Origin: Parcubacteria group bacterium GW2011_GWA2_40_143
GTDB lineage: Bacteria; Patescibacteriota; Minisyncoccia; UBA9983
Length of the DNA: 56,645 nucleotides
NCBI GenBank assembly: GCA_000996035.1
Contig: LBYH01000003.1
Span: 1 to 56,645 of the forward strand
Direction of reading: 5' to 3'
Shown piece by piece: positions 11,308 to 45,723 of this stretch. The notes beneath the pieces were generated by a model that was given only the letters and a program-made list of their open reading frames with translations, searched no databases and had not been told where the DNA came from. The translations under genes were made by a program, and so were the position numbers. Each line of letters opens with the position of its first letter. Positions within the stretch are counted from its first letter, which is position 1.

Positions 11308-11311
11308 AAAT
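11236..11311 (+). repeat. 76-bp repeat copy R1 (native 3' end of dnaE including the stop codon)
   Basis: ctccgcaacggcgattcttccatcattgtggaagagcttaaagaactgacggtggagaatgcaaattcttgaaaat is identical to 12702-12777. Confidence 0.95.
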
Positions 11312-12236: not shown

Positions 12237-12674
12237 TTAATTATTCGGCACTAATTCTTTAAGTGATAAAAGTGAAATGTATTCATTGGCGACGGCGTCC
12301 AAAGAAACGTTCTCCACCACACGCGAAAGCAAATCGTTATTCTTAGCAAACAAAACTTCTCCTGTCCTGAAAACATTGTTCAAAAAAGCGCTTGGCGCGA
12401 AGTTTAAAATCTTGACATCAATATCATCCATAGACAATCCGCATTTTTTCGCAATTTTTTCCGATAATCTTATCTCTTCGTCAAAAACTTCTTCTTTAAC
12501 GATTTTGTTGAAGTAAACGCCAACGTCAATATCTCTGAATGAAGGAGAACCTAAAAAAGAGCCGAAGATATAGGTAAAAATAATTCTTTCATCCTCGGAA
12601 AGAATTATTTTAATGCCATCCATTATTTTTTGCCTGTCGTTTTGGCTTATTGATAAATACTCTTCTTTATTCAT
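12237..12674 (-). CDS. mntA: minimal nucleotidyltransferase antitoxin MntA
   Basis: GSFLGSPSFRDIDVGVY fits the GSx10DxD motif. It is paired with the DUF86 gene. Confidence 0.8.
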   Translation of the reverse strand: MNKEEYLSISQNDRQKIMDGIKIILSEDERIIFTYIFGSFLGSPSFRDIDVGVYFNKIVKEEVFDEEIRLSEKIAKKCGLSMDDIDVKILNFAPSAFLNNVFRTGEVLFAKNNDLLSRVVENVSLDAVANEYISLLSLKELVPNN

Positions 12675-12701: not shown

Positions 12702-12777
12702 CTCCGCAACGGCGATTCTTCCATCATTGTGGAAGAGCTTAAAGAACTGACGGTGGAGAATGCAAATTCTTGAAAAT
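12702..12777 (+). repeat. 76-bp repeat copy R2 (exact duplicate of the dnaE 3' end)
   Basis: Identical to 11236-11311. It lies 17 nt upstream of the thrS ATG. Confidence 0.95.
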
Positions 12778-14540: not shown

Positions 14541-16497
14541 AAAGTTTTCTGGCTTCCACGTTTGAGCCCATGAGAGTCTCAAAGACTTTGTCAGCCTCCT
14601 CGGCATCACTTACATTTACTTGCTTGAGCACTCTTCTGGCCGGATCCATGGTAGTCTCCCATAGTTCTTCCGGATTCATCTCACCGAGACCTTTGTATCT
14701 TTGCACGTTATAACCCTCCTTGCCTTTCAAGGCTTTATCTCTTTCCGTGTCACTATAGGCGTATGTTATATCTTTGCCTTTTTGCACCTTATACAAAGGC
14801 GGCTGAGCAATGTACAGATAACCGTTTTCTATAACCGGCGCGAAATGTCTGAAAAATAAAGTGAGCAAAAGCGTAGTGATGTGCGCGCCGTCCACGTCGG
14901 CATCAGTGGCTATGATTATTTTATGGTAACGCAATTTGCTTAAATCAAACTCATCGGCAATAGCGGCGCCGAGAGCTATCACTAACGCTTTAATTTCTTT
15001 GAAAGCTAGCATCTTGTCTAGCCCCGCTCTTTCCACGTTTAGAATTTTACCTTTAAGCGGCAGTATGGCCTGAGTGCGCCTGTCTCTGCCCTGCTTACTG
15101 GAACCGCCGGCGGAATCTCCCTCTACTATAAAGAGTTCCGACTCCTCGGCGCTTTTGGATTGGCAATCAGCCAATTTGCCGGGCAAAGTGAGACCTTCAA
15201 GCACCCCTTTGCGCAAAATACTTTCTTTGGCGGCTTTGGCGGCTTTTCTGGCCTTAAGAGCCAATACCACTTTGGAGATAATAATTTTAGCGTCATCGGG
15301 ATTTTCTTCCAGAAAGGTTGAGAAGGCTTCGCCAAACACGGATTCCACCATAGATCTGGCTTCGGGATTGCCAAGCTTAGCCTTCGTTTGTCCTTCAAAC
15401 TGCGGCTCGCGCAATTTTATGGATATAACGGAAGTGATGCCTTCTCTCACGTCTTCTCCGGTAAAATTCTCATCGCTTTCTTTAATAAGATTATTTTTTC
15501 TGGCGTAATCGTTTATGATTCTGGTAAGAGCAGTCTTAAAACCGGTTAGGTGCGAACCGCCTTCCGGTGTTTTGATATTATTCGCGAAACTCACTTCGCG
15601 AATATCCACGTCTTCCACGTATTGCAAGGCGCACTCCACGCTGCCGCCATCTTCCATAAGTTTCTCTGTATAAAATATATTTTTGTGAACCGGTGTTTCT
15701 CCTTCGTTTAAATAAACCACCAAAGATTTAATGCCTCCTTCAAAATAAAAAGTGTATGAAGGGACATTTAAATTAAGATCTTTCAGATACAAGACATTAC
15801 TATCGTCTATCTCGCCCTCATAATCACGAAGATCCATCACTCTCACTCTCAAACCCTTCACAAGGTAAGCCTGCTGACGGAGATGATTTAGAATCGTTTG
15901 ATAATTAAATTTTGTTTCTGAGAATATTGAACCGTCCGGCTGGAAAGTTACAACCGTGCCCTTAAATTTGCTTGGGCCGACTCGCTTAGTCTTATATTGC
16001 GGCTTGCCTATTTTGTATTCTTGTATGTGCTTGTCTTTGCCAGTGTGCACTTCCGCCTTAAGATCAGTGGACAGAGCGTTTACCACCGAAGCGCCCACAC
16101 CGTGCAAACCGCCGGCAATTTTATACGACTCGCCGCCAAACTTACCGCCGGCATGAAGCGTAGTCATAATCGTTTCAAGCGCCGATACTTTAGTTTGCTT
16201 GTGTATATCTACCGGTATGCCTCGGCCGTTGTCGGCCACTCTTATTCTCTCCCCCGGCAAGATAACCACTTCTATCTCATTGGCAAAACCACCCATGGCT
16301 TCATCGCGAGAGTTGTCAAAAATTTCCCACACCAAATGATGCAAGCCGTCTATGCCGGTAGAACCGATATACATACCCGGGCGTTTACGCACCGGATCAA
16401 GGCCTTCCAAAATATAAATATCATCGGCCGTGTAATTAGGCTTTTTGTCTTTTTTGACCTCTTTTTCGGTTTTTTTTGTGTCGTCTTTTTGAGCCAT
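14497..16497 (-). CDS. gyrB: DNA gyrase subunit B
   Basis: GLHHLVWEIFDNSRDE, the GHKL ATPase, Toprim (LFIVEGDSAGGS, DADVDGAHI), and the YKGLGEMNPEELWETTM tail. Confidence 0.95.
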   Translation of the reverse strand: MAQKDDTKKTEKEVKKDKKPNYTADDIYILEGLDPVRKRPGMYIGSTGIDGLHHLVWEIFDNSRDEAMGGFANEIEVVILPGERIRVADNGRGIPVDIHKQTKVSALETIMTTLHAGGKFGGESYKIAGGLHGVGASVVNALSTDLKAEVHTGKDKHIQEYKIGKPQYKTKRVGPSKFKGTVVTFQPDGSIFSETKFNYQTILNHLRQQAYLVKGLRVRVMDLRDYEGEIDDSNVLYLKDLNLNVPSYTFYFEGGIKSLVVYLNEGETPVHKNIFYTEKLMEDGGSVECALQYVEDVDIREVSFANNIKTPEGGSHLTGFKTALTRIINDYARKNNLIKESDENFTGEDVREGITSVISIKLREPQFEGQTKAKLGNPEARSMVESVFGEAFSTFLEENPDDAKIIISKVVLALKARKAAKAAKESILRKGVLEGLTLPGKLADCQSKSAEESELFIVEGDSAGGSSKQGRDRRTQAILPLKGKILNVERAGLDKMLAFKEIKALVIALGAAIADEFDLSKLRYHKIIIATDADVDGAHITTLLLTLFFRHFAPVIENGYLYIAQPPLYKVQKGKDITYAYSDTERDKALKGKEGYNVQRYKGLGEMNPEELWETTMDPARRVLKQVNVSDAEEADKVFETLMGSNVEARKLFIQSHAKEVENIDA

Positions 16498-18731: not shown

Positions 18732-19076
18732 CTAACTTACTGCTTTTAAAACGTTGACGATCATGCACTTGTGCGCGCAATCTTTACAACTAAGTTCTTC
18801 CCTCGCCTTTCTCCGAAAGGTTGAGAGAAATGCGACTTTTAAAAACTTATCGTGAGCCAATATATCACAAATTTTGCCTTTGCCTTCGCACATAACTACC
18901 AAGCGGCCTCTTGAACCGCTTTTCAAGTAAAAACCTTCAAGGTTTTTACTTTCCCTCGTGTTTTCTTCGCAGAATATGTCTTCTGCGTATCTCTCTCCCA
19001 TTAGAGAGAGATTGAAATACGCGTTCTTCACCCCGCTACATACCAAGTTTCCGCCCAACGGAATTGCCTTACTCAT
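18732..19076 (-). CDS. hypothetical Cys-rich small protein
   Basis: 114-aa ORF with its own terminator. Cysteines at CSGV, FCEE, MCEGKGKICD and CKDCAHKC. No family recognised. Confidence 0.45.
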   Translation of the reverse strand: MSKAIPLGGNLVCSGVKNAYFNLSLMGERYAEDIFCEENTRESKNLEGFYLKSGSRGRLVVMCEGKGKICDILAHDKFLKVAFLSTFRRKAREELSCKDCAHKCMIVNVLKAVS

Positions 19077-30406: not shown

Positions 30407-30868
30407 ATGAAGAAATTGGTTTTGGTTTTTTCGTTAGTTGTTTTTTTCACCGGCTGTGCTTCCTCGCAGGCGCGCCAGCAACAAACTTATGTTGCTCCGC
30501 CTTTAGTTGTCCAGTGCAGTCAATGCTGGACGAGGTTCACACCGCCGACCGATAACACTGGCACCCCTTGGACGCAATGTCCAAAATGTGGCGCTAATGT
30601 TTTAGTGCCGGCAGAAAATATGAGAAATTCCTCATCCTCGCAAAGTTACAAAAGCGGTGGAGAGGAAGAGGTTCCCTTCCCACACCATTTGTTCAACCGC
30701 CCACGCGGTTACAGTGAGACTGAGTCCACCCGCGTGCGGCGTGGATATACAAATGAAAGTTGGGGGAAAAATTGGTATTCCTCCAACTACGGTTGGGTGA
30801 ATTACAGTCAAAGGAAAACTTACCGCGTGCGAACATACAACACGCGGAAACATTATCATTGGCCTTAA
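30407..30868 (+). CDS. lipoprotein with zinc-ribbon-like CxxC...CxxC motif
   Basis: Lipobox FFTGC. CSQCWTRF...CPKCGANV. The tail is rich in W, Y, R and N. Confidence 0.6.
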   Translation: MKKLVLVFSLVVFFTGCASSQARQQQTYVAPPLVVQCSQCWTRFTPPTDNTGTPWTQCPKCGANVLVPAENMRNSSSSQSYKSGGEEEVPFPHHLFNRPRGYSETESTRVRRGYTNESWGKNWYSSNYGWVNYSQRKTYRVRTYNTRKHYHWP

Positions 30869-30896
30869 CAATAAGGCCAATGCCCCTAAAAAACAA

Positions 30897-30930
30897 AGCG
30901 TCGGTTTTTCTTAAAACCGACGCTTCTTTA
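30897..30930 (+). terminator. intrinsic terminator after the lipoprotein gene
   Basis: AGCGTCGGTTTT / AAAACCGACGCT stem followed by TCTTTATTT. Confidence 0.65.
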
Positions 30931-30959
30931 TTTGCACCAAGGTTAAACCTTGGTGCAAA
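30931..30959. repeat. orphan palindrome TTTGCACCAAGGTTaaACCTTGGTGCAAA
   Basis: 13-bp perfect arms. It shares the CAAGGTTnAACCTTG core architecture with the palindrome family at 38958, 39661 and 41411. Confidence 0.8.
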
Positions 30960-31894
30960 CTCCTTTCTCTCGCCCGTCTGTGCGCCGAACGAGCGAAGCG
31001 GTGCGCTTCGTCTCGCGTTCTGAGTAAAATATTTTTTGAAGCTTGCGCCAGCCTCTTTAATTTTAAATAATCTATATTCTTTTTTATTTTCCTCGCCATT
31101 CTCAAACACCACCATGGAGCCGTAAGTTTCTCTGCCGGCAAAGTGGGAAATGTCATATCCCTCTATTCTGGAAGAATCGCCAAGAGGAATTTCTTCTTCT
31201 CTGATGATAAGAGCCGCGTCTTTTAAATATCTTAGAGCCTTGGCTTTCTTCGGACTCTCTTTGGCAAGTTTATTCAAAAGACGTTTCTTTTTTCCACTCA
31301 AAAAAAGAACAAGATTGCTCACTATTTTTTTATAATCCTTTTTGGAAATCTCTCCGGAGCAGACTCCCGGACAAAGACCGATTTGGCGATGAAAGCACGG
31401 TTTCAAATTCGGCTTAGGTCCTCCGTCCAAACTGTAAGGAAAAATTTTTCTTATAATTCCAAAACATCGCCGGCAATTTTTGAGCTACCATACGGCCCGA
31501 AAATTTTAAAACCGGATGACGGAAATTTTTTCAGCTCTCTCGCGCGCGCCACTATAGGCGCCGGATAATCGCCTTTGTCTAAAACTATATAAGAAAAGGA
31601 GCGATTGTCTTTATCTTTTACATTATATTTCGGCCAATGCTTTTTAATTAAATTCGCCTCAAGCACCACCGAGTCTATTACCGTTTCCGTTTCAATATGT
31701 TTTAAACGAGAAGCTTGATTTATCATCTCTCGCTTGCTCTCCGAAGTATCGGCTCTGAAGTAACTCGCCACTCTGCTTCTTAAAGACGTGGCTCTGCCCA
31801 CGTATAAAATCACTCCTTTCTTATCAAGGAACATATAAACGCCCGACGCGTTAGGAAGTTTTTTAATAATAACCTGATTTAATATTATTGACAT
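30960..31894 (-). pseudogene. uvrC: excinuclease UvrC remnant (frameshifted, internally deleted, 3'-truncated)
   Basis: GIY-YIG domain in ORF 31451-31894 (GVYMFLDKKGVILYVGRA). A Cys-rich segment and the RIEGYDISHFAGRETYGSMVVF...YRLFKIK segment follow in another frame (to about 31040). RDEAHRFA..HRRAR appears in a third frame (ORF 30911-31156). The (HhH)2 end is absent. Confidence 0.8.
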
Positions 31895-31907
31895 TCGATG
31901 TCGATAG
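31888..31907 (+). repeat. hairpin family A copy (TTGACATTCGATGTCGATAG)
   Basis: GACAT-tcg-ATGTC stem-loop, 10 nt downstream of the RAYT-1 stop. Confidence 0.8.
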
Positions 31908-31916
31908 ATAAGGAAA

Positions 31917-32600
31917 CTATTCCAAAACTATTTTTCCCATATCATTTATATCCATATCTTTAACCCATTGTTTTATACTGTTCATATATTCCTTTTCCCC
32001 TCCAAAAAAGTCTAACAAAAAATTTCTTTGAGTTACTGATGGAAAATTATTTTTGCCGATATAATCAAGATGACTGCTCCAGCGATAAGAATTTATGAAA
32101 TCAACAACTTTTTTAAAATCTTTTATCTTTCTTTCTCGCCACTCCGGAGCGACAAAATCCAAAGGATTAAGGTGGATATAATAAGGCAAGTGTATAAAAT
32201 GCGCTTCGTCTTTAATAAGAATTTTTTTATGGCGACCTTCAAACAAAGCGCCGGACCGGTCATATTTTATGTTGAAATATTTTGAATAACCCATATTTAT
32301 TTTCTTCATAAATTTTGGAATACCACCATTAACTTTGGAGCTAACTAAAAGATGATAGTGATTGTCCATTAAACAAAAAGCATGTATGACAACGAGCAAT
32401 TTCCTCTTTTTTTTCTTATATTGACGTCGAACGTCGATAGTATTTGGTTTTTCAAAGAAATAAACATTATTAACAACATTGTCTTGATCATTGAATTCAA
32501 ACAAATTATGGACAAAACGAAATCTGTCCTTGTCATTAGTAAAAATTTTTCTTTTATCAACACCTCGATTTACTATATGATAAATCTCCATGCTTACCAT
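31917..32600 (-). CDS. HUH-Y1 transposase-like protein (RAYT / IS200-like, COG1943-type), copy 1
   Basis: YHIVNRGVDKRKIF N-terminus, HUH motif MDNHYHLLV, and Tyr motif YYIHLNPLDF. Confidence 0.75.
   Translation of the reverse strand: MVSMEIYHIVNRGVDKRKIFTNDKDRFRFVHNLFEFNDQDNVVNNVYFFEKPNTIDVRRQYKKKKRKLLVVIHAFCLMDNHYHLLVSSKVNGGIPKFMKKINMGYSKYFNIKYDRSGALFEGRHKKILIKDEAHFIHLPYYIHLNPLDFVAPEWRERKIKDFKKVVDFINSYRWSSHLDYIGKNNFPSVTQRNFLLDFFGGEKEYMNSIKQWVKDMDINDMGKIVLE
32421..32440 (+). repeat. hairpin family A copy inside the RAYT-1 coding sequence (TTGACGTCGAACGTCGATAG)
   Basis: GACGT-cga-ACGTC stem-loop, translated in frame as NTIDVRRQY. Confidence 0.7.
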
Positions 32601-32610
32601 TCTACATCTA

Positions 32611-32654
32611 TTGACGTTCGATGTCGATAGGATTACCGATGTCGATAGGATTAC
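32611..32654 (+). repeat. hairpin family A copy plus an exact 18-bp tandem duplication
   Basis: TTGACGTTCGATGTCGATAG is followed by a perfect tandem CGATGTCGATAGGATTAC x2 (32619-32636 and 32637-32654), 11 nt upstream of the RAYT-1 start. Confidence 0.85.
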
Positions 32655-34381
32655 AAATATTTTTTCAAATATTTGCCTGTCGGGGATTTTGGATTCTTGG
32701 CCACGTCTTCCGGCGCGCCTACCGCCACCACTCTGCCGCCACCCTCGCCCCCTTCCGGACCGAGATCTATTATATAGTCGGCGCTTTTTATAACATGCAT
32801 GTTGTGCTCTATAAGTAAAACGGAATTGCCTTTTTCCACAAGTTTATTAAGGACTTTAAGCAAAAGCTCAATATCATAATAGTGCAAACCGACGGTAGGT
32901 TCATCCATAATATACAAAGTTTTTTTGCCGAGCGGGCATGTAAGTTCTCTGGCCAGCTTTATTCTCTGAGCTTCGCCGCCGGAGAGGGTGGTGGCGCTCT
33001 GACCTATCTCCAGATAACCAAGACCGACTTCTTCCAAAACTTTCAACCTGTCGGTAATAAGATACAAGCCGTCAAAAAATTTTCCAGCTTCGCTTATTTC
33101 CATCTTGAGCACGTCGCTTATGTTCTTGCCTTTATGTTTTACATCAAGAGTTTCTTATTAAATCTTTTGCCACGGCATACCTCGCATTCCACCGTTACTG
33201 GCGCGAGAAAATGCATTTCTATGAGATTAAAGCCGGCGCCCTCGCAAGCCTCGCATCTGCCGCCTCCACGATTGGAAGGCACGTTAAAAGAGAATCTGGA
33301 AGCGCTATATCCCCTTTCTCTGGCATCAGGCAAAGACGCGTAGAAGTCTCTTATATAATTGAAGTGCCGGTATAAGTAGCCGGATTGGATCGCGGACTTC
33401 TGCCTATGGGAGACTGATCCACCATTACAAGCTTGTCTATGTACTCATTGCCGAAGAGTTTGCTGAGATGTTCAAGAGGAGCGTTTATGCGCGACTTTAT
33501 ACGCTGAAGATTCTTGTATAACACATCATGCAAAAGCGTTGACTTGCCACTGCCGGACACGCCGGAAATGCAAACAAGCTTTCTTAAAGGTATTTCCACA
33601 TCCACGTTTTTAAGATTGTTCGCTCGCGCGCCGATAAGTTTTATCTTTTCGGTCGTCTTCGTTCTCCTGCTTGGCACCTCTATTTTTCTCTTGCCTTTAA
33701 GATAATCCAAAGTAAGAGAAGTGATTCGGCCGCTTGGATTTACCAACTTGTTCGTTTCGCCAGTGGCCACCACTTCGCCGCCGTTTTTGCCGGCAAACGG
33801 TCCGAGATCTACCAAAAAGTCTGAAGCAAAAATAGTTTCTTCATCATGCTCAACCACTATCACCGTATTGCTCTGGTCGCGCAAAGATTTTAGCGTGCCA
33901 ATGAGCCGCTCGGTATCCCGTTCATGCAAGCCGATTGTGGGTTCATCAAGCACATAGAGCGTGCCGGAAAGTTTGGTGCCTATTTGCGAAGCCAAACGTA
34001 TCCTCTGAGCCTCGCCGCCGGAAAGAGTTTCCGCTTCTCTTTCCATCGTCAGATAATCAAGTCCGAAACTTCTTGAATGCTTTTCCCGTTAATTTTTACG
34101 GACAGACCTTCCGGCTTGAGTCTTTTGCCATCGCAATCAGGACATACTTCGTTTAAAAACAAATCAGTTTTACCTAAGCCTTTACAAGTGGGGCGAGCGT
34201 ACGGCGAAAGCGACTCTATGTATCTGCGTTGCCCCTCAGCGAAGATGGTATCAAAAGCCAACGATGATTTGCCCGATCCGGATACTCCGGTAAAAACCAC
34301 CAATTTGTTTTTGGGAATTTCCAGACTTATATTTTTGAGATTATGCACTCTCGCGCCTTTTATAATAATTTTATCCAACAC
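32651..34381 (-). pseudogene. uvrA: excinuclease UvrA remnant (at least 3 frame breaks plus a large internal deletion)
   Basis: Four consecutive ORF fragments. 34049-34381 has the first Walker A ([15 protein letters not shown]), then jumps to CPDCDGKRL. 33351-34046 has LSGGEAQRIRLA and the second Walker A. 33139-33333 has the zinc finger [20 protein letters not shown]. 32651-33112 has LSGGEAQRIKLA...GPEGGEGGG. Together they total about 560 aa, against about 940 aa for an intact UvrA. Confidence 0.85.
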
Positions 34382-34449
34382 ACGCCAATCTTATACCTGT
34401 TTTTGTCCCACATCAACCCCTTGTACAGTTAACCATATTGGCAAGCATA

Positions 34450-35466
34450 TTAAGTCAATTGCTCTTTAGATAAAATTTTATTATAAGCCAAACCGGCAAG
34501 GGCGGAAGCGAGCACGATGACGGCATATATTCCTTGAAACAAAAGATTGTTCACGTTCCAGAAACTTTCTTTAAAAACCTCAATAATCAAAATAAAAATC
34601 CATGAACTCATCAGGGCGGCACCGATCGCGAAAGAAATTTTCCCATAGAAACCGTAACCGACTTTTACCTTTACTCCGGCTGTCTCTCCTTCAAGAGACT
34701 TACTCACCATTTTCGGGGAGATTATCAGATTTAAAATCGCGCCAGCTATGATAATGAATAATACCGCCGCAAACTTTGCGAGAAACACTGGCGAGCTACT
34801 TATATCCCCCGCTTCCGGCGCGTACGCGCCGATACCGCTCAAAATAATCACGGCCAAAGCAAACCACATTATTTGCGACAGAGTCTTCATTACATCCGCC
34901 TCAAACTTTGAGATTTGGCAATCTTTGAGAAATTTTAAGAATAAAATATTGGCTATGGCGGCTCCGCCTATACCAAGCGACAAGCCTAAGAAATGAAAGC
35001 TTACAAAAGCTTCGTAATTTTCTTCCATAAGAGAAAGGAAGCCCGCATCTGAGGAAAAGAGGGACAGAAAAAATATAAAGAAACTTATAGTAGCCGAGCC
35101 GAGGCACCAAGTGCACCATTGTTTCAAGCTGAAAGCTTGGATAAATGTAAGATACGCCGAGAATAAAAGCGCGGCAGCCCCTATCGCGACCAACGCGAAC
35201 ATCAGAGAGAGATGAGCTAGCTCCGGCAACAACAGAAATGAGGTGTACGCGACAACAACCAAGCTGTAATAAAAAAGGCCGATAATCTCCAAGGGGATAC
35301 CAAAGAACTTTGAAAAGTCGCTATGCACCACAGAATCGCAATCAGCTCCAATTGGACATGCTAAAACTTTTTTGGCTCTTTTTTTCTTAAAGATATAAGA
35401 AGAGATGCCAAGGCCGCCGAGACCCAAGACTATCAATATTATTTTTAACATAACGATAATTTCCAT
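34450..35466 (-). CDS. VKOR-family (vitamin K epoxide reductase-like) membrane protein with extra C-terminal TM domain
   Basis: Loop cysteines [16 protein letters not shown], and active-site CTWC in a TM helix. The start is placed at MEIIVML because the longer ORF would overlap tRNA-Thr. The start could also be MLKII at 35451. Confidence 0.65.
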
Positions 35467-35540
35467 GGAGCCAGCGGTGAGATTTGAACTCACGACCTAT
35501 GGTTTACGATACCATTGCTCTACCACTGAGCTACGCTGGC
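35466..35540 (-). tRNA. tRNA-Thr (CGU), CCA encoded
   Basis: The reverse complement folds as GCCAGCG-TA-GCTC-AGTGGTA-GAGC-A-ATGGT-ATCGTAA-ACCAT-AGGTC-GTGAG-TTCAAAT-CTCAC-CGCTGGC-T-CCA. Confidence 0.9.
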
Positions 35541-35548
35541 TTATATTA

Positions 35549-35620
35549 AGCCGATGGTGAGAATTGAACTCACGACCTACTCCTTACCATGGAGTTGCTC
35601 TACCCCTGAGCTACATCGGC
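35549..35620 (-). tRNA. tRNA-Thr (GGU)
   Basis: The reverse complement folds as GCCGATG-TA-GCTC-AGGGGTA-GAGC-A-ACTCC-ATGGTAA-GGAGT-AGGTC-GTGAG-TTCAATT-CTCAC-CATCGGC-T. Confidence 0.9.
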
Positions 35621-35660
35621 GCTAATCACAAAAATGGTTACTTCTATAATCTTATAGAAT

Positions 35661-35689
35661 TTGCTTTATTTTGCAATATTTACTAATAT
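35661..35689 (+). promoter_or_regulatory. candidate promoter of the plus-strand tRNA cluster (TTGCTT, 17 nt spacer, TAATAT)
   Basis: The hexamers have 17-nt spacing, about 38 nt upstream of the tRNA-fMet 5' end. Confidence 0.4.
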
Positions 35690-35726
35690 AGAGATTGTTG
35701 GTTTCATTAGGAACTTAACATTATAT

Positions 35727-35797
35727 CGCGGGGTGGAGAAGCAGTATCTCGAGAGGCTCATAACCTCTAGACCCGGGTGCGATTCCCGGCCCCGCAA
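35727..35797 (+). tRNA. initiator-type tRNA-fMet (CAU) with atypical T-loop
   Basis: CGCGGGG...CCCCGCA-A gives the C1xA72 mismatch typical of bacterial initiators. The anticodon loop is CTCATAA. The T arm is CCGGG-TGCGATT-CCCGG, with G where the near-invariant U55 is expected. Confidence 0.8.
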
Positions 35798-35813
35798 CAA
35801 GCAAACTGCTTTG

Positions 35814-35885
35814 TTTATTGCCTGATTCTGCGAAGCAGAAATCGCCGATGTTGAGCGAAGCGAAATATCGGCAATAGGCAATAAA
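35814..35885 (+). other. structured tRNA-operon spacer (three-way junction with two GCGAAGC mini-hairpins)
   Basis: The outer stem pairs TTTATTGCC with GGCAATAAA. Hairpin 1 is GATTCTGC-GAA-GCAGAAATC. Hairpin 2 pairs GCCGAT with ATCGGC and encloses GAGCGAAGCGA. Confidence 0.4.
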
Positions 35886-35893
35886 GCAAAAAT

Positions 35894-35967
35894 GCCGGCG
35901 TAGCTCAGTTGGTTAGAGCGTGGGACTCATAAGCCCAAGGTCGGAGGTTCAATTCCTCCCGCCGGCA
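35894..35967 (+). tRNA. tRNA with CAU anticodon (elongator Met or lysidine-type Ile2, unresolved)
   Basis: GCCGGCG-TA-GCTC-AGTTGGTTA-GAGC-G-TGGGA-CTCATAA-GCCCA-AGGTC-GGAGG-TTCAATT-CCTCC-CGCCGGC-A. Confidence 0.85.
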
Positions 35968-35998
35968 TTGGATGTTAAAATAGAGGTTAAAACAAAAT

Positions 35999-36072
35999 GC
36001 GATCGTAGCTCAATTGGTTAGAGCACCCGCCTGTCACGCGGGAGGTTGCCGGTTCAAGTCCGGTCGGTCGCG
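35999..36072 (+). tRNA. tRNA-Asp (GUC)
   Basis: GCGATCG-TA-GCTC-AATTGGTTA-GAGC-A-CCCGC-CTGTCAC-GCGGG-AGGTT-GCCGG-TTCAAGT-CCGGT-CGGTCGC-G. Confidence 0.9.
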
Positions 36073-36085
36073 CAGAAGATAGACA

Positions 36086-36652
36086 TTATATGTACTTCAG
36101 TTCCTCAAGTCCGGCTTTATACTTTTCTATCGTCGCTTTGGCATCCTCTTTGGAAAGCGTCATTTCTGGCGCGCCGTGAGCGATTCTGTTTCTCACTTTA
36201 TGCGCGTCCCAAACATTTTGCAGATTATCAAAGTCGCTCGGCTCTATAGCTTTTAGCCTGTCTCCCAAACCGTCGCCCCTGTAGCCTATTTTTCTGAAAA
36301 TGCTGTCTAAGAGCGCGTCAGCTTCAAGAATGGCCATTTTCCAATCAACCGAATTATCTGAATTTATTTTGTTTTTAATACTTTCCCATCTGGTCGCGCG
36401 CTCTCTCGGCTCGCCCTCTTCTTTAAGAAAATCTATGAGCGTGTAAACTCCCCTCTTCTCTCTGAGCAGAATTACTTTTCTGGCTATTACGAAAATTGCA
36501 ATGATTAAGATAGTGGAAAATATAATGGAAAATATTATCAGCGCGTCAATATGTTGAAAAAGAAAAATAAAAAATTCAAGCAATTTTTTAAGCAGTTTGA
36601 AAAATTGATTAAAAAGGTATTCTATATTAAGCCATTTTACATCAGGTAACAT
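36086..36652 (-). CDS. membrane-anchored hypothetical protein with C-terminal Rx4H (HEPN-like) motif
   Basis: One TM helix (ALIIFSIIFSTILIIAIFVIA), then a soluble helical domain ending in WDAHKVRNRIAHGAP. Confidence 0.5.
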   Translation of the reverse strand: MLPDVKWLNIEYLFNQFFKLLKKLLEFFIFLFQHIDALIIFSIIFSTILIIAIFVIARKVILLREKRGVYTLIDFLKEEGEPRERATRWESIKNKINSDNSVDWKMAILEADALLDSIFRKIGYRGDGLGDRLKAIEPSDFDNLQNVWDAHKVRNRIAHGAPEMTLSKEDAKATIEKYKAGLEELKYI

Positions 36653-36655
36653 AAA

Positions 36656-38077
36656 TTATTTCTCAAGTTCTTTGCCTATTTTAAATAATATATCTTCTCT
36701 AAACCACGGCGCGGTAAACTGAACACCTATCGGCAAGCCGCCCTCTCCCGCGCCAAAAGGCACCGAGATGGCCGGCAAACCCGCCACTTTGGAAGGCGCG
36801 GTAAATAGGTCTTCAAGATACATGGCAAGCGGATTATCCGACTTCTCTCCTATCTTAAAAGCGGTATTGGCCGTGGCGGGAGAAATAATCGCGTCCACGC
36901 TTTCAAAGGCTTTCTTGAAATCTTGTTTTATAATCTCTCTAGCCTTCTGCGCTTTAAGGTAATAATTATCATAATAACCGGCCGACAGCACGTAAGTGCC
37001 AAGCATAATTCTTCTCTTAACTTCCGCGCCAAAGCCTTTGCCTCTGGTCTTCATGTAATCATCAGTAAGATTTGAGCCTTCGGCATAAAGCCCATATCTG
37101 ACGCCGTCAAATCTGGCAAGATTGGAAGAGACTTCCGCCGGCACCAGCACATAATAGCACGGCACGGAGTAATCTATATTCGGTATCTCAATATCCGTAA
37201 TTTCATGGCCTAGATTTTTTAATTTTTCCGCTGCCGCTTCAACCGTCTTGTTTATTTCATCGCTCACGCCGGTTTTGTTATATTTTAAAATTCCGATTTT
37301 TAATTTTTCCGGCAAAGTGTTTTCTTTCTTTCCCTTTCCTTCGCCCAAGACCGAAGTGGAATCCATTTTGTCGGCACCCTTTATCACGTTAAAAATTATT
37401 TCCGCGTCTTCCACGCTTTTGGCAATAGGTCCTATTTGGTCAAAAGACGAAGCCATGGCAATAAGCCCGTATCTTGATACGGATCCGTAAGTGGGACTTA
37501 CGCCCACCGCTCCGCAAAAGGCGGCCGGCTGTCTTATGGAGCCGCCAGTGTCGGAGCCAAGAGACGCGAGGCACATATCAGCTGCCACAGAAGCCGCGCT
37601 GCCGCCAGACGATCCGCCGGAAACCCTGCTGAGATCGTGAGGATTTTTGGTAACGCCAAAGGCGGAATTCTCCGTGGAAGCACCCATGGCAAATTCGTCC
37701 ATGTTTACTCTGCCGATTATCACCGCGCCGGCATCTTTGAGCTTTTCTATAACGGTAGCATTATAAACGGCTTTGTAATTCTCAAGCATTTTAGAGCCGG
37801 CTGAACATATTTTGCCGCTTATCAAAATATTATCTTTAATGGAAAATGGGATACCGAAAAGCGGCTTATTTTCCATTTCGCCGATTTTTCCGTCCAGCTC
37901 TTTGGCCTGATCAATGACATCTTCAAAAATTTCAAGATAGGCGTTTATGTCGCCGTTTTTATCTTTAATATTTTTGAGATATTCATTCACCAAACCGCTA
38001 ACGGTTAATTCCCCATTGGCAATCATCTCCCGCGCTTGCTTGATTGAGTTTGGCAACATTGATTTAATTTCTGACAT
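36656..38077 (-). CDS. gatA: Asp/Glu-tRNA amidotransferase subunit A
   Basis: Amidase signature GGSSGGSAASVAA, GSDTGGSIRQPA, and 473 aa. Confidence 0.9.
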   Translation of the reverse strand: MSEIKSMLPNSIKQAREMIANGELTVSGLVNEYLKNIKDKNGDINAYLEIFEDVIDQAKELDGKIGEMENKPLFGIPFSIKDNILISGKICSAGSKMLENYKAVYNATVIEKLKDAGAVIIGRVNMDEFAMGASTENSAFGVTKNPHDLSRVSGGSSGGSAASVAADMCLASLGSDTGGSIRQPAAFCGAVGVSPTYGSVSRYGLIAMASSFDQIGPIAKSVEDAEIIFNVIKGADKMDSTSVLGEGKGKKENTLPEKLKIGILKYNKTGVSDEINKTVEAAAEKLKNLGHEITDIEIPNIDYSVPCYYVLVPAEVSSNLARFDGVRYGLYAEGSNLTDDYMKTRGKGFGAEVKRRIMLGTYVLSAGYYDNYYLKAQKAREIIKQDFKKAFESVDAIISPATANTAFKIGEKSDNPLAMYLEDLFTAPSKVAGLPAISVPFGAGEGGLPIGVQFTAPWFREDILFKIGKELEK

Positions 38078-38095
38078 TTTTTAAGTTTGAAAGCT

Positions 38096-38392
38096 TTATT
38101 GAAATACATGCTTTACTTTTATATAACCGTTTTCCGAAGACGGAGCTTCTTCCAAAACTCTTTTTGTATGCAAGGAAGTTTGATGAGGATCAATATCATT
38201 TCTCAAATTGTTTGTGTTTAGAGCGCTTTTATCCACGGCAAATTCTCCAATACCGGAAGAATCAATCTCGCTAAGTTTATCCATGTAACCCAAAATAGCT
38301 TCAAATTCTTTTTGAAACTTATCTTTCTCGTTTTCTTCAATATCTATTCTGGCAAGCTTCGCCACTTTGTTTACGTCTATTTTGTTTGACAT
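38096..38392 (-). CDS. gatC: Asp/Glu-tRNA amidotransferase subunit C
   Basis: 98 aa with VAKLARIDIEENEKDKFQKEFEAILGYMDKLSEID, directly upstream of gatA. Confidence 0.8.
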   Translation of the reverse strand: MSNKIDVNKVAKLARIDIEENEKDKFQKEFEAILGYMDKLSEIDSSGIGEFAVDKSALNTNNLRNDIDPHQTSLHTKRVLEEAPSSENGYIKVKHVFQ

Positions 38393-38433
38393 TTTGACAT
38401 TACTTCTCCCTTTTTAATCTCCATATTCCACCA

Positions 38434-38898
38434 TTAATTACCCAGCGCCTCTCTGACTATTTTGCTTACCAGAGCACCATCGGCCCGGCCTTTCGTCTGA
38501 GAAGTGAGAGCGGACATTACTTTCCCTAAATCGGAAGAAGAAGATGCTCCGACTTCGGCAATAACTTTTTGCGCCAGAGATTTTATTTCTTCTTCGCTCA
38601 TTTGCGCCGGAAGATACTCTTTGAGAACATTAAGCTCCGCTTGTTCGCTTTGCGCCAAATCTTCTCTGCCGCCGGCTTTGTATTGTTCTATGGAGTCCTT
38701 TCTCTTTTTGGCTTCCTTGGAGAGAATATCCATCACCTCGGCATCAGTAAGCGGCGTGTCTACTCCGCCGGCTTTGGCTCTCTTTTCTATTTCAGCGTTG
38801 CCTATGGCCGCATTTACCATCTTAAGCACCGATAATTTTACCCGCTCTTTAGCTTTAAAAGCCTCCTTAAAATCCGTTTTTATTTTTTCTTTTAACAT
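38434..38898 (-). CDS. GatB/YqeY-domain protein
   Basis: MLKEKIKTDFKEAFKAKERVKLSVLKMV...LNVLKEYLP...GKVMSAL is typical of the YqeY family. Confidence 0.8.
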   Translation of the reverse strand: MLKEKIKTDFKEAFKAKERVKLSVLKMVNAAIGNAEIEKRAKAGGVDTPLTDAEVMDILSKEAKKRKDSIEQYKAGGREDLAQSEQAELNVLKEYLPAQMSEEEIKSLAQKVIAEVGASSSSDLGKVMSALTSQTKGRADGALVSKIVREALGN

Positions 38899-38957
38899 AT
38901 TTTTATATTACCACAAGAAGTTTGAATTACGAAATATTTAGCAGACGCGAAAATTTT

Positions 38958-38990
38958 CCCCAATGTCAAGGTTCAACCTTGACATTGGGG
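38958..38990. repeat. palindrome family B copy (CCCCAATGTCAAGGTTcAACCTTGACATTGGGG)
   Basis: 16-bp perfect arms with central C at 38974, 24 nt upstream of the RAYT-2 ATG. Confidence 0.9.
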
Positions 38991-39013
38991 ACTGTTAAAA
39001 ATAAAATAGAATC

Positions 39014-42303
<3,290 letters not shown>

Positions 42304-42306
42304 ATT

Positions 42307-42825
42307 TTATCTACTTGAATCAATTTTCCTCTGAGACACGGATGTCTGCAAATTGAGACTTGATTTTAATTTCTGCTTGGAATCGGTAACACCACCAACA
42401 TAAATGGTTACAAACGGCTGACCGTCGCTTGGACCAGCTCTTCTCACGGTAAAAATAAGACTACTGACATTTACATCTTGGGATGTTATCCGAGAGTTGT
42501 CTCTCATTATGTATTTTTGCTGGTTATCTTCTTTCAGCTCATATGTAACTGATTTATCGTCCACATCAGTAAAACTAAAAACCGAACAAGGCGAAGGAGA
42601 ACAGATATAACCACGACCTTCTCTTATATCTCTTGTCATCATTTCTATCGTAAAAGACATGTTATCGCTCACGTTTCTGAGCGACTCGCTTTTTTTCTGA
42701 ATGTCGGAGATATTTAAAAACGCCCCCATGGAAATCGTCATTACGACGGCGAAAAGACCCAGAGCGACAATAAGCTCTATTAGAGTGAAGCCGGCGTTTG
42801 GATTTTGTTTATTTCTTATCTCCAT
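42307..42825 (-). CDS. type IV pilus minor pilin (PilW/GspJ-like)
   Basis: Class III signal NAGFTLIELIVALGLFAVVM. Confidence 0.65.
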   Translation of the reverse strand: MEIRNKQNPNAGFTLIELIVALGLFAVVMTISMGAFLNISDIQKKSESLRNVSDNMSFTIEMMTRDIREGRGYICSPSPCSVFSFTDVDDKSVTYELKEDNQQKYIMRDNSRITSQDVNVSSLIFTVRRAGPSDGQPFVTIYVGGVTDSKQKLKSSLNLQTSVSQRKIDSSR

Positions 42826-43406
42826 TTATATATATTATTTTGCAATTTTATTTCCCGTGGCCCATATTTGCCTGTCCAAGAAACTTTCACTTCTATCACC
42901 GCTTCATACTCATCGTCGCCATTAAGATTTTTTGATATTTTAACGATCCTTTTAAAACCGGAGTCATTGCCATCTACGTATTGATAACCATTATCATCGC
43001 TACGATTCAGATTAGGACATTCTGAAACACACTCCGTCACGGTATCGTTTGCAGCATCTATGTAACAACTTTTTCCATCGAGACATTCATCAACAAGCCC
43101 GTAAAGCCAGTCCACCGGTTCCGTGGCATCTATATTTTTAAGCAAGTTTGAATCCCTCACGTTTCTCGCGTATTCAAACGGCTCTTGCGCCAACTCAAAG
43201 GCCACCAGCTGATCCTGCGCCACGGAAGCGGCTGAAATATTTTTTATGGCAAAAGTCATCGGCCCGGCTATGGCAGTAGTTAAAATTGCCACCGCTACGA
43301 GCGTTTCCACCAGCGTAAACCCCCGCTTCGCTCCAGCGAAGCTCACACCAACTTTTGATAAAGTAGGTGTGGGGGTGAAGCCTTTTTTGTATTGTTTTCT
43401 AAACAT
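42816..43406 (-). CDS. type IV pilus minor pilin (PilV/GspI-like)
   Basis: KRGFTLVETLVAVAILTTAIAG. Confidence 0.65.
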   Translation of the reverse strand: MFRKQYKKGFTPTPTLSKVGVSFAGAKRGFTLVETLVAVAILTTAIAGPMTFAIKNISAASVAQDQLVAFELAQEPFEYARNVRDSNLLKNIDATEPVDWLYGLVDECLDGKSCYIDAANDTVTECVSECPNLNRSDDNGYQYVDGNDSGFKRIVKISKNLNGDDEYEAVIEVKVSWTGKYGPREIKLQNNIYKWR

Positions 43407-43407
43407 A

Positions 43408-43989
43408 TTATTCTATGGAAATTTGACCATTCAAATAAATTTTTATATCTTTAGAAATTTTATCATTGGGAGCCGCGATGGTAACGATGGCATAATCGTT
43501 ACTGCCACTCCCTGAACTATCTGTAATACTAGCCATCGGATTGCTTCTAGGATATACGATGTTTATCTCTCCAGTATCATTACATCCTGATGAACATAAT
43601 TGCAACCTAGATATGGTATCGCCAGTGGTTATCATAAAAGTATTGATTTCTTCTCCCTCATCATAAAGGTTATTTCTCACTCCCTCTTCTCCTTTGTCGG
43701 CAAAAAGCGTAAAAGTATTTCCTGTTTTAAAATTTATTCCGTAGGCGGGAAACTTTCCGTCAAGTTCTTTGATTGAAAGAGCGTTCACCTGAGCCTCGCG
43801 CACCGCCAAAGCGATATCATTACTCGTCCTTCTTATAGCCATTCGTTGATTGAATTCCGGATAGCTGGCAAAGACCATCATGTTTATTACGGTCAAGATG
43901 GACACAGAAACCATAAGCTCAATCAAACTGAAGCCATTCGCCTTTCGGCTAAAAATAAAATTCAAAAAATCAAACCTAAAAAATTTCAT
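43408..43989 (-). CDS. type IV pilus minor pilin (GspH/FimT-like)
   Basis: ANGFSLIELMVSVSILTV. The start is moved to MKFFRF (43989) so that it no longer overlaps pilD. Confidence 0.6.
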   Translation of the reverse strand: MKFFRFDFLNFIFSRKANGFSLIELMVSVSILTVINMMVFASYPEFNQRMAIRRTSNDIALAVREAQVNALSIKELDGKFPAYGINFKTGNTFTLFADKGEEGVRNNLYDEGEEINTFMITTGDTISRLQLCSSGCNDTGEINIVYPRSNPMASITDSSGSGSNDYAIVTIAAPNDKISKDIKIYLNGQISIE

Positions 43990-44012
43990 TGCTTTTATTA
44001 TATCATTTTTTA

Positions 44013-44810
44013 TCAGAACAAAAAGCTGATCATCTTTTCTCCCCAAAACAAAGAAATAATCGTCCCTAAAACCATAAAAGGCCCGAAAGCGATACTGCTT
44101 TTCAAGCCATATTTATTTTTACTTAGATATAACAGCAAAATACCAACAATCGCTCCAATCCAAAAAGCCAAAGTGATGGCGGCGATGCCGTTAGTTATTC
44201 CAAGAAGCCAGCCGATGCCGAGAGCCAGCTTGGCATCGCCAAAGCCCATCCATCGCCCGCCGGAAAAAAACCAAAGGGAAGCAAAAAAAATGAATAATAT
44301 AAGACCGGCCGATAAACCGCTAAAATTAAAATTTTCAATTATCAATTTCCAATTTTCAAAATTGAATAAAGACAAGAAACTAAGGCCGATAAACGGATAC
44401 ACAAAAATATCGGGAATTATCTGATGACGATAATCATAGACGGCGATAAGAATCAGAAAGGCCGCAACAGCCAAAAGATAAAAGATTTTTGCAAAATTGA
44501 AAATTGAAAATTCATTGAAAACTGGCAATTGAAAATTGAAAATCAAAAGAAAGACCAACCCTGTTAATATTTCCACCGCGGGATATTGCAACGATATTTT
44601 ACTTTTGCATTCGCGGCAACGGCCTTTTTGAATCAAGAAACTGAAGATTGGAACGAGTTCTATCCACTTAAGCTTCTTGCCGCAGGAAAAACATTTAGAG
44701 CCGCCGGAAACAACAGATTCGCCGGTGCCAAGCCGAAGAGTCACCACGTTAAGAAAACTGCCAATAATGGCGCCGAAACAAAAAACAATAAATAACTCTG
44801 GATATAACAT
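44013..44810 (-). CDS. pilD: prepilin peptidase (A24 family)
   Basis: N-terminal Zn-binding CFSCGKKL...CRECKSKIS, the DYRHQIIPD catalytic Asp region, and GFGDAKL. Confidence 0.85.
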   Translation of the reverse strand: MLYPELFIVFCFGAIIGSFLNVVTLRLGTGESVVSGGSKCFSCGKKLKWIELVPIFSFLIQKGRCRECKSKISLQYPAVEILTGLVFLLIFNFQLPVFNEFSIFNFAKIFYLLAVAAFLILIAVYDYRHQIIPDIFVYPFIGLSFLSLFNFENWKLIIENFNFSGLSAGLILFIFFASLWFFSGGRWMGFGDAKLALGIGWLLGITNGIAAITLAFWIGAIVGILLLYLSKNKYGLKSSIAFGPFMVLGTIISLFWGEKMISFLF

Positions 44811-44827
44811 ATTTTTTTATTATAGAA

Positions 44828-44863
44828 GTGCATCGACGGCATCGACGTCGGACTTCGACGCAC
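44828..44863 (+). repeat. hairpin family C copy (with partial internal duplication)
   Basis: GTGCATCGACG-GCATCGACGTCGGACTTCGACGCAC. Confidence 0.8.
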
Positions 44864-44892
44864 ACGCACATTATAAATCAAACTTTTCCACA

Positions 44893-44920
44893 AGTGCATC
44901 GACGTCGGACTTCGACGCAG
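44893..44920 (+). repeat. hairpin family C copy (AGTGCATCGACGTCGGACTTCGACGCAG)
   Basis: 8-bp arms TGCaTCGA / TCGACGCA with loop CGTCGGACT, followed by GTATAAT and the RAYT-3 ATG 16 nt later. Confidence 0.85.
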
Positions 44921-44935
44921 GTATAATGAAACTAT

Positions 44936-45685
44936 ATGAATAGAAAAATCCCTTTTGTCGTTGGTGAATATTATCATACGTACAATAAAACAGTTTTTGG
45001 CATCAACGAATTTAGTGACAGAGATAATGCTTATAAACTAGCCCAAACTTTCTTGCTAGCAAATTCTACAACATCTAGTCAAGCGTTTGATTATCTTAGA
45101 AATGATAGGCATCCTATGCTCAAAAATGCAATTGAAATAAAAAATTCTGGAGAAAAACTGACAGACATCTTGTGTTATGTGATAATGCCAAATCATTACC
45201 ATTTATTATTAAGAGAAATAAAAGAGGGAGGAATAACTGATTTTCTAAGAAGAAGCAGCACATCTATAGCAAAATATATCAATACCAAAAAAGAAAGGCG
45301 CGGCCCATTATTTGAAGGTAATTTTAAATCAAAGCACATAGATTCAAATACTTATCTACTCCACTTGTCATTATACATACACCTTAATCCTTTAGATTTT
45401 ATCACTAACAAAAACTGGCGAGAAAATAAAATGGAAGATTGGGGAAACATCTTTAAAAAACTTACTGATTATCGCTGGTCAAGCTTAAGAAGCTATTTAA
45501 ATGACAATGACACCGCGTCGACGTCGGACTTCGACGCAATAATTTCCGGGGAAAAAATTATAAAGAATCAGTTTAATGATCTTGGCAACGATAATGATTA
45601 TGGTAATTATGGTAATTTTCTTAAGGAATGGGCGACTGGCTTAGGTGAAACAAATAACGATAATATTGAAAAATTCGCATTTTGA
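44936..45685 (+). CDS. HUH-Y1 transposase-like protein (RAYT / IS200-like, COG1943-type), copy 3
   Basis: EYYHTYNK, HUH motif MPNHYHLLL, and Tyr motif LYIHLNPLDF. It contains an in-frame family C hairpin (TASTSDFDA). Confidence 0.7.
   Translation: MNRKIPFVVGEYYHTYNKTVFGINEFSDRDNAYKLAQTFLLANSTTSSQAFDYLRNDRHPMLKNAIEIKNSGEKLTDILCYVIMPNHYHLLLREIKEGGITDFLRRSSTSIAKYINTKKERRGPLFEGNFKSKHIDSNTYLLHLSLYIHLNPLDFITNKNWRENKMEDWGNIFKKLTDYRWSSLRSYLNDNDTASTSDFDAIISGEKIIKNQFNDLGNDNDYGNYGNFLKEWATGLGETNNDNIEKFAF
45514..45538 (+). repeat. hairpin family C copy inside the RAYT-3 coding sequence
   Basis: CGCGTCGACGTCGGACTTCGACGCA is translated as TASTSDFDA, at a position where copies 1 and 2 have no corresponding residues. 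Confidence 0.85.
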
Positions 45686-45694
45686 TTGATTGAA

Positions 45695-45723
45695 AGTGCG
45701 TCGACGTCGGACTTCGACGCAGG
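45695..45723 (+). repeat. hairpin family C copy downstream of RAYT-3
   Basis: AGTGCGTCGACGTCGGACTTCGACGCAGG. With its flanks it forms a ~32-bp direct repeat, with one mismatch, of 44892-44923. Confidence 0.85.

Follow-up and report, generated by a model that had tools for sequence, protein, structure and literature searches.

The systems formed by REP-associated tyrosine transposases (RAYTs) and repetitive extragenic palindromes (REPs) are among the few long-lived, vertically inherited "replicators" of bacteria, and their function is not known. That a genome may hold several RAYT genes, each with its own REP family, and that REPs may lie in frame within genes was already known, beyond proteobacteria as well (PMC6006769, PMC3733652). 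RAYTs, or TnpAREP, constitute class 2 of Quentin 2018, which is defined by the tyrosine motif Y-x-x-x-N-P and not Y...Q (PMC6006769), and TnpAREP cleaves and transfers its cognate REPs in vitro, whether these are bulged or perfectly palindromic (PMC8266576). Here, we analyze a window, that is, the whole stretch of 56,645 nucleotides of contig LBYH01000003.1 from the Parcubacteria group bacterium GW2011_GWA2_40_143, a member of the Candidate Phyla Radiation (CPR), in which three diverged Y1/HUH genes are each bracketed by a palindrome family of their own (A, B, and C). A first description made from the letters of this window, hereafter the sequence-only reading, had likened the arrangement to REPtrons (a RAYT gene with its cognate REPs) and had taken such systems to be known mainly from proteobacteria, a restriction that the published surveys contradict (PMC6006769, PMC3733652). 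The explanation that we consider probable, with some reservation, is that the window carries three co-resident REPtron-like modules belonging to a Patescibacteria-wide radiation of class-2 (RAYT-like) Y1/HUH single-stranded DNA (ssDNA) nuclease-ligases.

Three Y1/HUH Genes and Their Palindromes

The three open reading frames (ORFs) are intact and encode proteins of 222–249 amino acids (aa), which are 33–42% identical to one another and have in common the YH.., NH[YF]H, and YIHLNP motifs, as the sequence-only reading had stated for the paralogs located here. With the Pfam profile PF01797 (Y1_Tnp; cut-off 23 bits), proteins 1 and 2 scored above the cut-off (36.5 bits, E = 5.9e-9, and 46.2 bits, E = 5.8e-12, respectively) and protein 3 below it (19.3 bits, E = 1.3e-3), so that the expected membership was recovered directly for two of the three; most homologs of protein 3 do carry PF01797. 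All three remained under the cut-off of 80 bits of the NCBIfam equivalog REP_Tyr_transpos (NF047646), with 38.5, 52.1, and 39.6 bits, and no second Pfam domain was found in any of them at E ≤ 0.01. Homolog alignments spanning 53–83% identity show no variation in the HUH histidines or in YIHLNP. Database searches returned 6652 matches for protein 1 (best 83% identical), 7754 for protein 2 (best 64%), and 338 for protein 3 (best about 64–67%); the named members of all three subfamilies come from Patescibacteria only and, where annotated, are labeled "transposase." A structure model of moderate quality (predicted local distance difference test score, pLDDT, 61.5), built from 23 subfamily-1 sequences, had as its top 30 PDB matches the TnpA proteins of IS608, ISDra2, or IS200 or the Escherichia coli RAYT 4ER8. 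Sequence profiles compared with the PDB reached ISDra2 TnpA weakly around the HUH motif (E ~ 0.005–0.013) and did not reach RAYT 4ER8, and a PDB sequence search with protein 2 alone gave no match. From the Y...NP motif and the modeled IS608/ISDra2/RAYT fold, proteins 1–3 are predicted Y1/HUH enzymes of the RAYT-like class. Translation of gene 1 probably begins at the ATG of position 32591.

Each gene is bracketed by its own palindrome family and never by that of another gene, as the sequence-only reading had also seen, and the copies are far above what shuffled sequence yields. Motif copies start at 31888 and 32611 (family A; 0.01 expected), at 38961, 39661, and 41411 (family B; 0 expected), and at 44838, 44895, 45514, and 45697 (family C; 0 expected). 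No copy was found beside a non-cognate gene or elsewhere in the window and ~16 kb of added flanks (~73 kb in total), and no further Y1 gene was found within the same ~73 kb of the source genome. Chance and local duplication were considered as origins of these repeats and rejected. In families B and C, the palindrome is close to perfect and its loop measures 1 nt, the stem being 13–17 bp long in B and 12 bp long, with one C.T mismatch, in C; folded as ssDNA, they reach −12 to −18 kcal/mol (z ≈ −6) and −8 to −9.5 kcal/mol (z ≈ −2 to −2.6), respectively. The description of all three families as palindromic is thus accurate for B and C and too strong for A, which is a weak hairpin. An Rfam scan identified tRNAs only.

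The palindromes are closely fitted to the genes that they flank (table 1). In all three cases, the upstream hairpin supplies the −35 box of a σ70-like site, with a −10 box 17 nt further on and the ATG 7–9 nt later; the site of gene 2 scores 11/12, the top match in 15.5 kb. The B palindrome at the other end of gene 2 encodes the final 6 codons and the stop of this gene, and because it gives the C-terminus and stop both of gene 2 (…LNVKVEP-stop) and of the convergent ligA (…TNVKVQP-stop), a single palindrome forms the 3′ end of the two genes; the C-terminus of eight LigA orthologs reads about …IK-stop. Hairpins also enter coding sequence in frame, as had been noticed from the sequence alone: the solo B copy in ligA adds 4–9 residues relative to orthologs (8 relative to E. 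coli LigA), and the peptide "TASTSDFDA," encoded by the internal C copy of gene 3, is an insertion with respect to nearly all of 23 homologs. The internal A variant of gene 1 has the same outer 7+7 nt as the flanking copies, with a compensatorily altered center, and it lies at linker codons ~54–60, where most subfamily-1 genes hold a copy of their own hairpin. A second in-frame insertion was observed in ligA (40974–41051), a 78-nt composite palindrome with a 15-nt outer inverted repeat and an inner 9-bp hairpin, which encodes 23–26 residues missing from the eight orthologs and from E. coli LigA.

The source population has been assembled repeatedly (e.g., GCA_000994355.2, GCA_003488385.1, and an ENA scaffold of 93.6 kb), always with at least 99.9% identity, and the 244-aa variant P0121 found among these assemblies is a C-terminal truncation only. 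Contig breaks in other assemblies coincide exactly with the family B palindrome (L007 starts at 38962) and with the ligA composite (L006 ends at 40995), because of which these repeats appear to disturb assembly.

Table 1. Y1/HUH genes, promoter-like sites, and palindrome copies, with positions numbered from the first nucleotide of the window.
Feature	Position	Strand	Remarks
Y1/HUH gene 1 (subfamily 1)	31917..32600	-	HUH NHYH 32352-32363; Tyr motif YIHLNP 32163-32180
Y1/HUH gene 2 (subfamily 2)	39014..39682	+	HUH NHFH 39254-39265; Tyr motif YIHLNP 39437-39454
Y1/HUH gene 3 (subfamily 3)	44936..45685	+	HUH NHYH 45191-45202; Tyr motif YIHLNP 45374-45391
Promoter-like site, gene 1	32627..32599	-	-35 TCGACA from family A
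Promoter-like site, gene 2	38979-39007	+	-35 TTGACA from right arm of B; ATG 7 nt after -10
Promoter-like site, gene 3	44899-44927	+	-35 TCGACG from family C; -10 TATAAT; ATG 9 nt after -10
Family A copy	31888..31907	+	9 nt 3′ of gene 1 stop; TTGACATTCGATGTCGATAG; weak hairpin
Family A copy	32611..32630	+	5′ of gene 1; contributes -35 hexamer TCGACA
Tandem duplication	32619..32654	+	2 x 18 nt, CGATGTCGATAGGATTAC; 3′ portion of family A
Internal family A variant	32421..32440	+	inside gene 1; TTGACGTCGAACGTCGATAG
Family B palindrome	38957..38991		5′ of gene 2; 17-bp stem, 1-nt loop
Family B palindrome	39661..39687		3′ end of gene 2
Family B, solo copy	41411..41437		in frame in ligA, directly before catalytic KxDG motif
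Family C, distal upstream copy	44838..44862	+	5′ of gene 3; 1 mismatch
Family C, proximal upstream copy	44895..44919	+	contributes -35 TCGACG of gene 3
Family C copy	45514..45538	+	in frame inside gene 3 (…TASTSDFDA…)
Family C copy	45697..45721	+	12 nt 3′ of gene 3 stop

Palindromes and Proteins across Patescibacteria

The same organization was examined at 160 loci around relatives in species-representative genomes (nearly all Patescibacteria), to which family-B loci were added, and in which 184 Y1 genes were called. For the 175 genes lying away from contig edges, we compared the 5′ and 3′ flanks with those of 400 size-matched control ORFs, taking a flank repeat score of at least 16 as a match: the two flanks share a repeat in 152 genes (87%) versus 11 control ORFs (2.8%). 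The repeat starts at a median of 53 nt 5′ of the start codon and 3 nt 3′ of the stop. As to form, these hairpins are perfectly palindromic, the median stem length being 11 bp; a 1-nt loop is found in 67% of them and a 3-nt loop in 21%. Their stems vary from gene to gene, with a few recurring tips (GAAGTC-S-GACTTC, GAGGTT-S-AACCTC, AAGGTT-N-AACCTT, and CTTGCGAAG).

Genomes often contain 3–5 Y1 genes. In 53 within-genome paralog pairs, the identity has a median of 42% and a maximum of 79%, and the hairpins differ even at 79%. Among 151 genes, hairpins match (score of at least 16) in 40–50% of the pairs with at least 70% protein identity, in 4–6% of those with 50–70%, and in none below 50%, and not one of 200 permutations gave a hairpin/protein similarity correlation as high. 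At the level of sequence comparison, this covariation supports specificity-matched protein/hairpin pairs, in line with the sequence-only reading, which overstated the case by calling the pairs mutually orthogonal, a property that the covariation may at most suggest.

Promoter overlap extends to the family at large: in the 73 genes with a promoter-like match of at least 9/12, the −10 box ends at a median of 7 nt 5′ of the ATG, and for 53 of them the −35 box and the hairpin overlap. A third copy of the gene's own hairpin lies inside 49 of the 75 subfamily-1 genes; most of these copies fall at nt 127–191, all three reading frames are represented, and 0–1 mismatch is usual. Over all genes, internal matches were found for the cognate hairpin in 44%, versus 0.8% for non-cognate hairpins. 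The site of the internal copy corresponds to the low-confidence loop 43–62 of the structure model. That the internal hairpin is a simple insertion was rejected, as the linker is not longer in genes with a copy (30 vs. 28 residues, P = 0.34).

Palindromes are also found away from Y1 genes. In the genome and metagenome contig collections scanned, which did not include the source genome, the exact 23-mer of family B occurs with an identical core at 53 loci from 31 assemblies (Taylor-, Zambryski-, Nomura-, Lloydbacteria, and others), 45 of these loci being without a Y1 gene, and other CPR genomes hold 2–6 exact copies on separate contigs. The only find of family C elsewhere is a solo copy in frame in tsaD, on a 7.2-kb metagenome contig without a Y1 gene; 84 matches to the C core in species genomes were discarded as single chance matches in high-GC organisms, none of them in CPR. 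Other private hairpins have solo copies within 10 kb for 29 of 126 genes. No copy of family A or B was found on viral contigs, which gives no indication of transport by phages. The palindromes of this Y1/palindrome system do disperse, though in few copies, and locally in the source genome.

Sixty distinct B copies could be compared, of which 16 are read through inside long ORFs, 14 of those in the single frame MSR[L/F]NLD, and 7 give a C-terminus with its stop (VKVxP-stop). The host genes, many of them housekeeping genes, encode alanyl-, valyl-, arginyl- (two sites), and leucyl-tRNA synthetases (two sites), RecJ, RNase R, UvrC, TatD, and an RsmI-type methylase. For the other hairpin families there are 38 solo copies: an ORF reads through 7 of these, and 5 lie at a C-terminus. 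In the recJ genes of two species (L021 and L024, genomes of 55–57% GC), B sits at the same codon and is identical at 23/23 positions, versus 70% for the coding DNA on either side (P ≈ 0.003). The non-conserved bases around solo B copies prolong the palindrome by at least 2 nt in 20 of the 60 (3.75 expected; P = 3e-10; loci L008–L060), and the added bases are not the same even among copies from a single genome; the copies may have inserted into short palindromes already present, or the palindrome may have grown by templating.

Genomic Setting

Gene 3 lies antisense between pilD and a pilin gene, and 11 other species have a Y1 gene there in the same antisense arrangement (L146, L147, L165, L173, L188, L192, L214, L216, L221, L265, and L283), where the hairpins are all tipped with GA[AC]GTC[CG]GAC[TG]TC. 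The divergence of protein 3 at L146, L165, and L173 (53–57%) is comparable to that of LigA (54–66%), which fits vertical descent. That all pilD-adjacent Y1 genes form one clade was ruled out, since they fall into two. The window also contains a type IV pilus cluster and a ComF-like gene, and the sequence-only reading had supposed that this proximity might be meaningful. No pilus gene lies within 10 kb at 147 of the 160 Y1 loci, and the conservation of the gene 3 slot in 11 species points to an inherited position rather than to a function in DNA uptake; the association comes down to conserved synteny of gene 3 only. At the slot of gene 2, between yqeY and ligA, syntenic relatives have unrelated small genes instead, which means that whole units are gained and lost over long times.

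Gene 1 is directly flanked by the remains of uvrC, split into two ORFs (30693–31894), and of uvrA, split into four (32651–34381, ~577 aa in total), which we regard as real pseudogenes because they are identical in seven independent assemblies. Within the uvrC 3′ remnant, three different strong hairpins follow one another at 30857–30959 (stems of 11, 13, and 14 bp), the third of which (TTTGCACCAAGGTTAAACCTTGGTGCAAA) has the tip AAGGTTNAACCTT in common with family B; no cognate Y1 gene for it was found in the ~73 kb. Orphan palindromes of similar style, with 13–15 bp stems and 1-nt loops, were observed at 7192–7222 (in frame in a RhuM-family ORF), 15579–15604 (inside gyrB), and 18925–18951, and outside the window at ~−4473 and ~+64114. 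They are possibly relics, or copies for Y1 genes elsewhere in the genome.

A 76-bp direct repeat (11236–11311 and 12702–12777) duplicates the 3′ end of dnaE (8086–11307) and encloses a 1.4-kb insert with a HepT-like/MNT (Polbeta) toxin–antitoxin pair (11819–12235 and 12237–12674) and a small NYN-like ORF; the appearance is that of an island that integrated at this end of dnaE. Positions 1–6292, also seen in L309, hold a defense-type cluster composed of a type III restriction-modification-like methylase, an AlbA_2/HATPase_c_4 protein, and a ResIII helicase-like gene, and adjoin the RhuM-family gene.

Relation to Known Systems and Competing Explanations

REPtrons (E. coli yafM, Pseudomonas, Stenotrophomonas; subclasses 2.2, 2.4, 2.5, 2.7, and 2.8 of Quentin 2018) resemble the CPR modules in having a Y1/HUH enzyme with Y...NP whose gene lies between copies of its own palindromic repeat, several diverged genes in one genome, each with a repeat family, low within-genome identity, mostly vertical inheritance, and repeats that can enter genes and give stop codons. 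The CPR modules differ in being devoid of a GT[AG]G guide, in their perfect palindromes with a 1- or 3-nt loop, in their few copies per ~1 Mb genome versus tens to hundreds, in their longer proteins (222–249 aa), in which F[ES] replaces the WQ/WE motif and which fall below the NCBIfam RAYT cut-off, and in the conservation of one palindrome core across many species. The REPtron comparison made by the sequence-only reading therefore holds for the cognate flanking palindromes and the RAYT-like enzymes and breaks down on the missing guide, the few local copies, and the profile score; it is broadly right to see the CPR modules as a variant of RAYT/REP systems and not as canonical members. Subclass 2.1 (Bertels Group 1, or TIRYT-TIRtron; Di Nocera 2013; Quentin 2018) shares with them NH[YF]H, Y[IV]HLNP, the "SS" tail, low copy number, and a comparable length (median ~238 aa; PMC6006769 Table 1). 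It was described, however, without REP-like hairpins and with long terminal inverted repeats and a C-terminal, DnaA_C-like helix-turn-helix (PMC6006769, PMC3733652), whereas the CPR proteins have no such Pfam domain and their flanks are self-complementary hairpins; inverted repeats of the GGGGWSAS type (GGGGTCAG-type) were present only at the distant non-CPR loci L299, L301, and L303. In subclass 2.4 (Cyanobacteria/Bacteroidetes), a cognate repeat likewise lies inside the gene for the enzyme and leaves the reading frame intact, but the CPR copy precedes HuH on the N-terminal side, where the linker that holds it keeps a constant ~28–30 aa, and it co-varies with the flanks. Rickettsia palindromic elements (RPEs) are also in-frame palindromic repeats in the housekeeping genes of a reduced genome; they are 100–150 bp long, CGTC-tagged, and without a transposase, whereas the CPR hairpins measure 23–35 nt and are each paired with a Y1 gene. 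In the literature searched, we found no description of RAYT-like modules in CPR, nor of a −35 promoter box within the hairpin, a co-varying internal hairpin, a B core common to 31 assemblies, a palindrome maintained at one recJ site in two species, or the lengthening of solo B palindromes by their flanks.

Sequence comparison demonstrates the enzyme class, the bracketing, the covariation, the solo and in-frame copies, and the maintenance of palindromes across species, and these features carry the reading that we favor, that of three co-resident REPtron-like modules. Such a module would consist, in order, of the palindrome, ~17 nt, a −10 box, a near-leaderless ATG, the Y1 gene, and the same palindrome at the stop codon. 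By analogy with TnpAREP (PMC8266576), a dimeric enzyme would recognize its own palindrome as an ssDNA hairpin, in the lagging-strand template or a transcription bubble, and would cut and rejoin at the hairpin foot. Cutting and rejoining may seed and homogenize copies at low frequency, mostly in cis, near the enzyme's own gene. As the upstream hairpin overlaps the −35 box of its gene, hairpin binding probably represses the gene's own transcription. The genes would then be low-copy, mostly vertically inherited residents and not jumping insertion sequences (ISs).

Several observations weigh against this reading. Family A is thermodynamically weak, with a 5-bp core, −2.5 kcal/mol, and z = −1.3. 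The motif spread expected by the sequence-only reading was recovered for B in related genomes; in the ~73 kb surveyed of the source genome, no A, B, or C copy is more than ~1.8 kb away from its own gene. Seven assemblies of the locus show no hairpin insertion polymorphism, so that the statement that the modules are or recently were active was too strong. Covariation is not strict, because family-B proteins that are only 50–76% identical have the same 23-nt core, and protein L036, 35% identical, likewise stands between B copies; the Y1 proteins in the pilD slot outside L146, L165, and L173 form another clade, 31–37% identical, and their hairpins nevertheless have the tip type of those three. 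A GT[AG]G guide stands at the foot of 6 of 284 hairpins (2.1%, vs. 2.7% in the background), and position weight matrices of the flanks are flat, with no conserved base that would mark a cleavage site. Lastly, the promoter assignments are consensus matches and not mapped promoters, and promoter-like sites are not enriched in the region overall (29 found vs. 33 expected).

Going beyond the favored reading, one may tentatively envisage an ancient, vertically kept Y1-HUH/palindrome radiation that has become a host-integrated system for ssDNA processing or regulation, with programmable hairpin specificity, and that is more than selfish DNA. As parts of this same tentative picture, the palindrome would be at once promoter element, embedded linker site, and 3′ end, copies in essential genes would be actively kept identical, and a ~1 Mb genome would hold several orthogonal versions.

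It is rather unlikely that full domestication has turned the enzymes into host proteins and that the palindromes are functional cis-sites held identical by selection and not by transposition, serving together as operator or promoter, internal auxiliary site, bidirectional stop or terminator, and scattered ssDNA sites for replication or repair. The very large intact family, kept as several paralogs in each of these extremely reduced genomes, agrees with this proposal, as do the overlap of hairpin and −35 box, the internal cognate copy at a fixed linker in three frames that leaves the linker no longer, the recJ palindrome identical across species, and the B core common to 31 assemblies. However, solo copies lie in unrelated essential genes at non-homologous positions, as at the two sites each of the arginyl- and leucyl-tRNA synthetase genes, which looks like insertion and tolerance and not like designed sites; copy number and position vary among genomes; and no function of any kind is known for RAYTs.

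Rather less can be said for the hairpin–gene–hairpin unit (~730–880 bp) as an autonomous IS200-like IS with the solo palindromes as its minimal non-autonomous derivatives, which we judge unlikely. Hairpins at both ends with a −35 box in the left one are a typical IS layout, syntenic relatives have other genes in the yqeY–ligA slot and no gene 2, and the fold is nearest to the TnpA of IS608/ISDra2; indeed, members of IS200/IS605 (IS608, ISDra2) resemble the CPR modules in fold, in subterminal hairpins on both sides of the gene, and in ssDNA chemistry. Yet their own traits, namely multiple near-identical copies, Y...Q, a length of ~150 aa, imperfect hairpins with guide and cleavage tetranucleotides, and often tnpB, were seen in none of the CPR modules, whose neighbors are housekeeping genes. 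Copies within a genome are ~99% identical in IS200 (PMC6006769 Table 1), whereas the 53 paralog pairs reach no more than 79%. The lack of near-identical copies, the Y...NP motif, the absence of a tnpB partner, and the lack of close database relatives place the enzymes in the RAYT-like class 2 rather than with IS200; the best relative of protein 2, at just 64% identity, speaks against recent spread, as do the viral contigs without copies and the slot kept in 11 species against an IS. That the palindromes are DNA-uptake signal sequences for the neighboring competence-type pilus and ComF is so improbable that we reject it, for although both are encoded in the window and family B is conserved across species, a genome holds only 2–6 exact copies, three different sequences coexist in one genome, and the tight pairing is with Y1 genes and not with pilus genes, which are absent near most Y1 loci.

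If these CPR units are three of many RAYT-like modules, as we propose, RAYT/REP systems reach into the Candidate Phyla Radiation. Covariation can be read from hundreds of naturally occurring protein/hairpin pairs, a possible resource on how HUH enzymes read hairpins, and such pairs could serve the engineering of orthogonal ssDNA tagging enzymes. Insertions of palindromes in ligase, tRNA synthetase, and repair genes are tolerated even by genomes of ~1 Mb, and the promoter-embedded and internal hairpins suggest an autoregulation that can be tested. Finally, many CPR genes annotated as "transposase" are probably not jumping IS elements.

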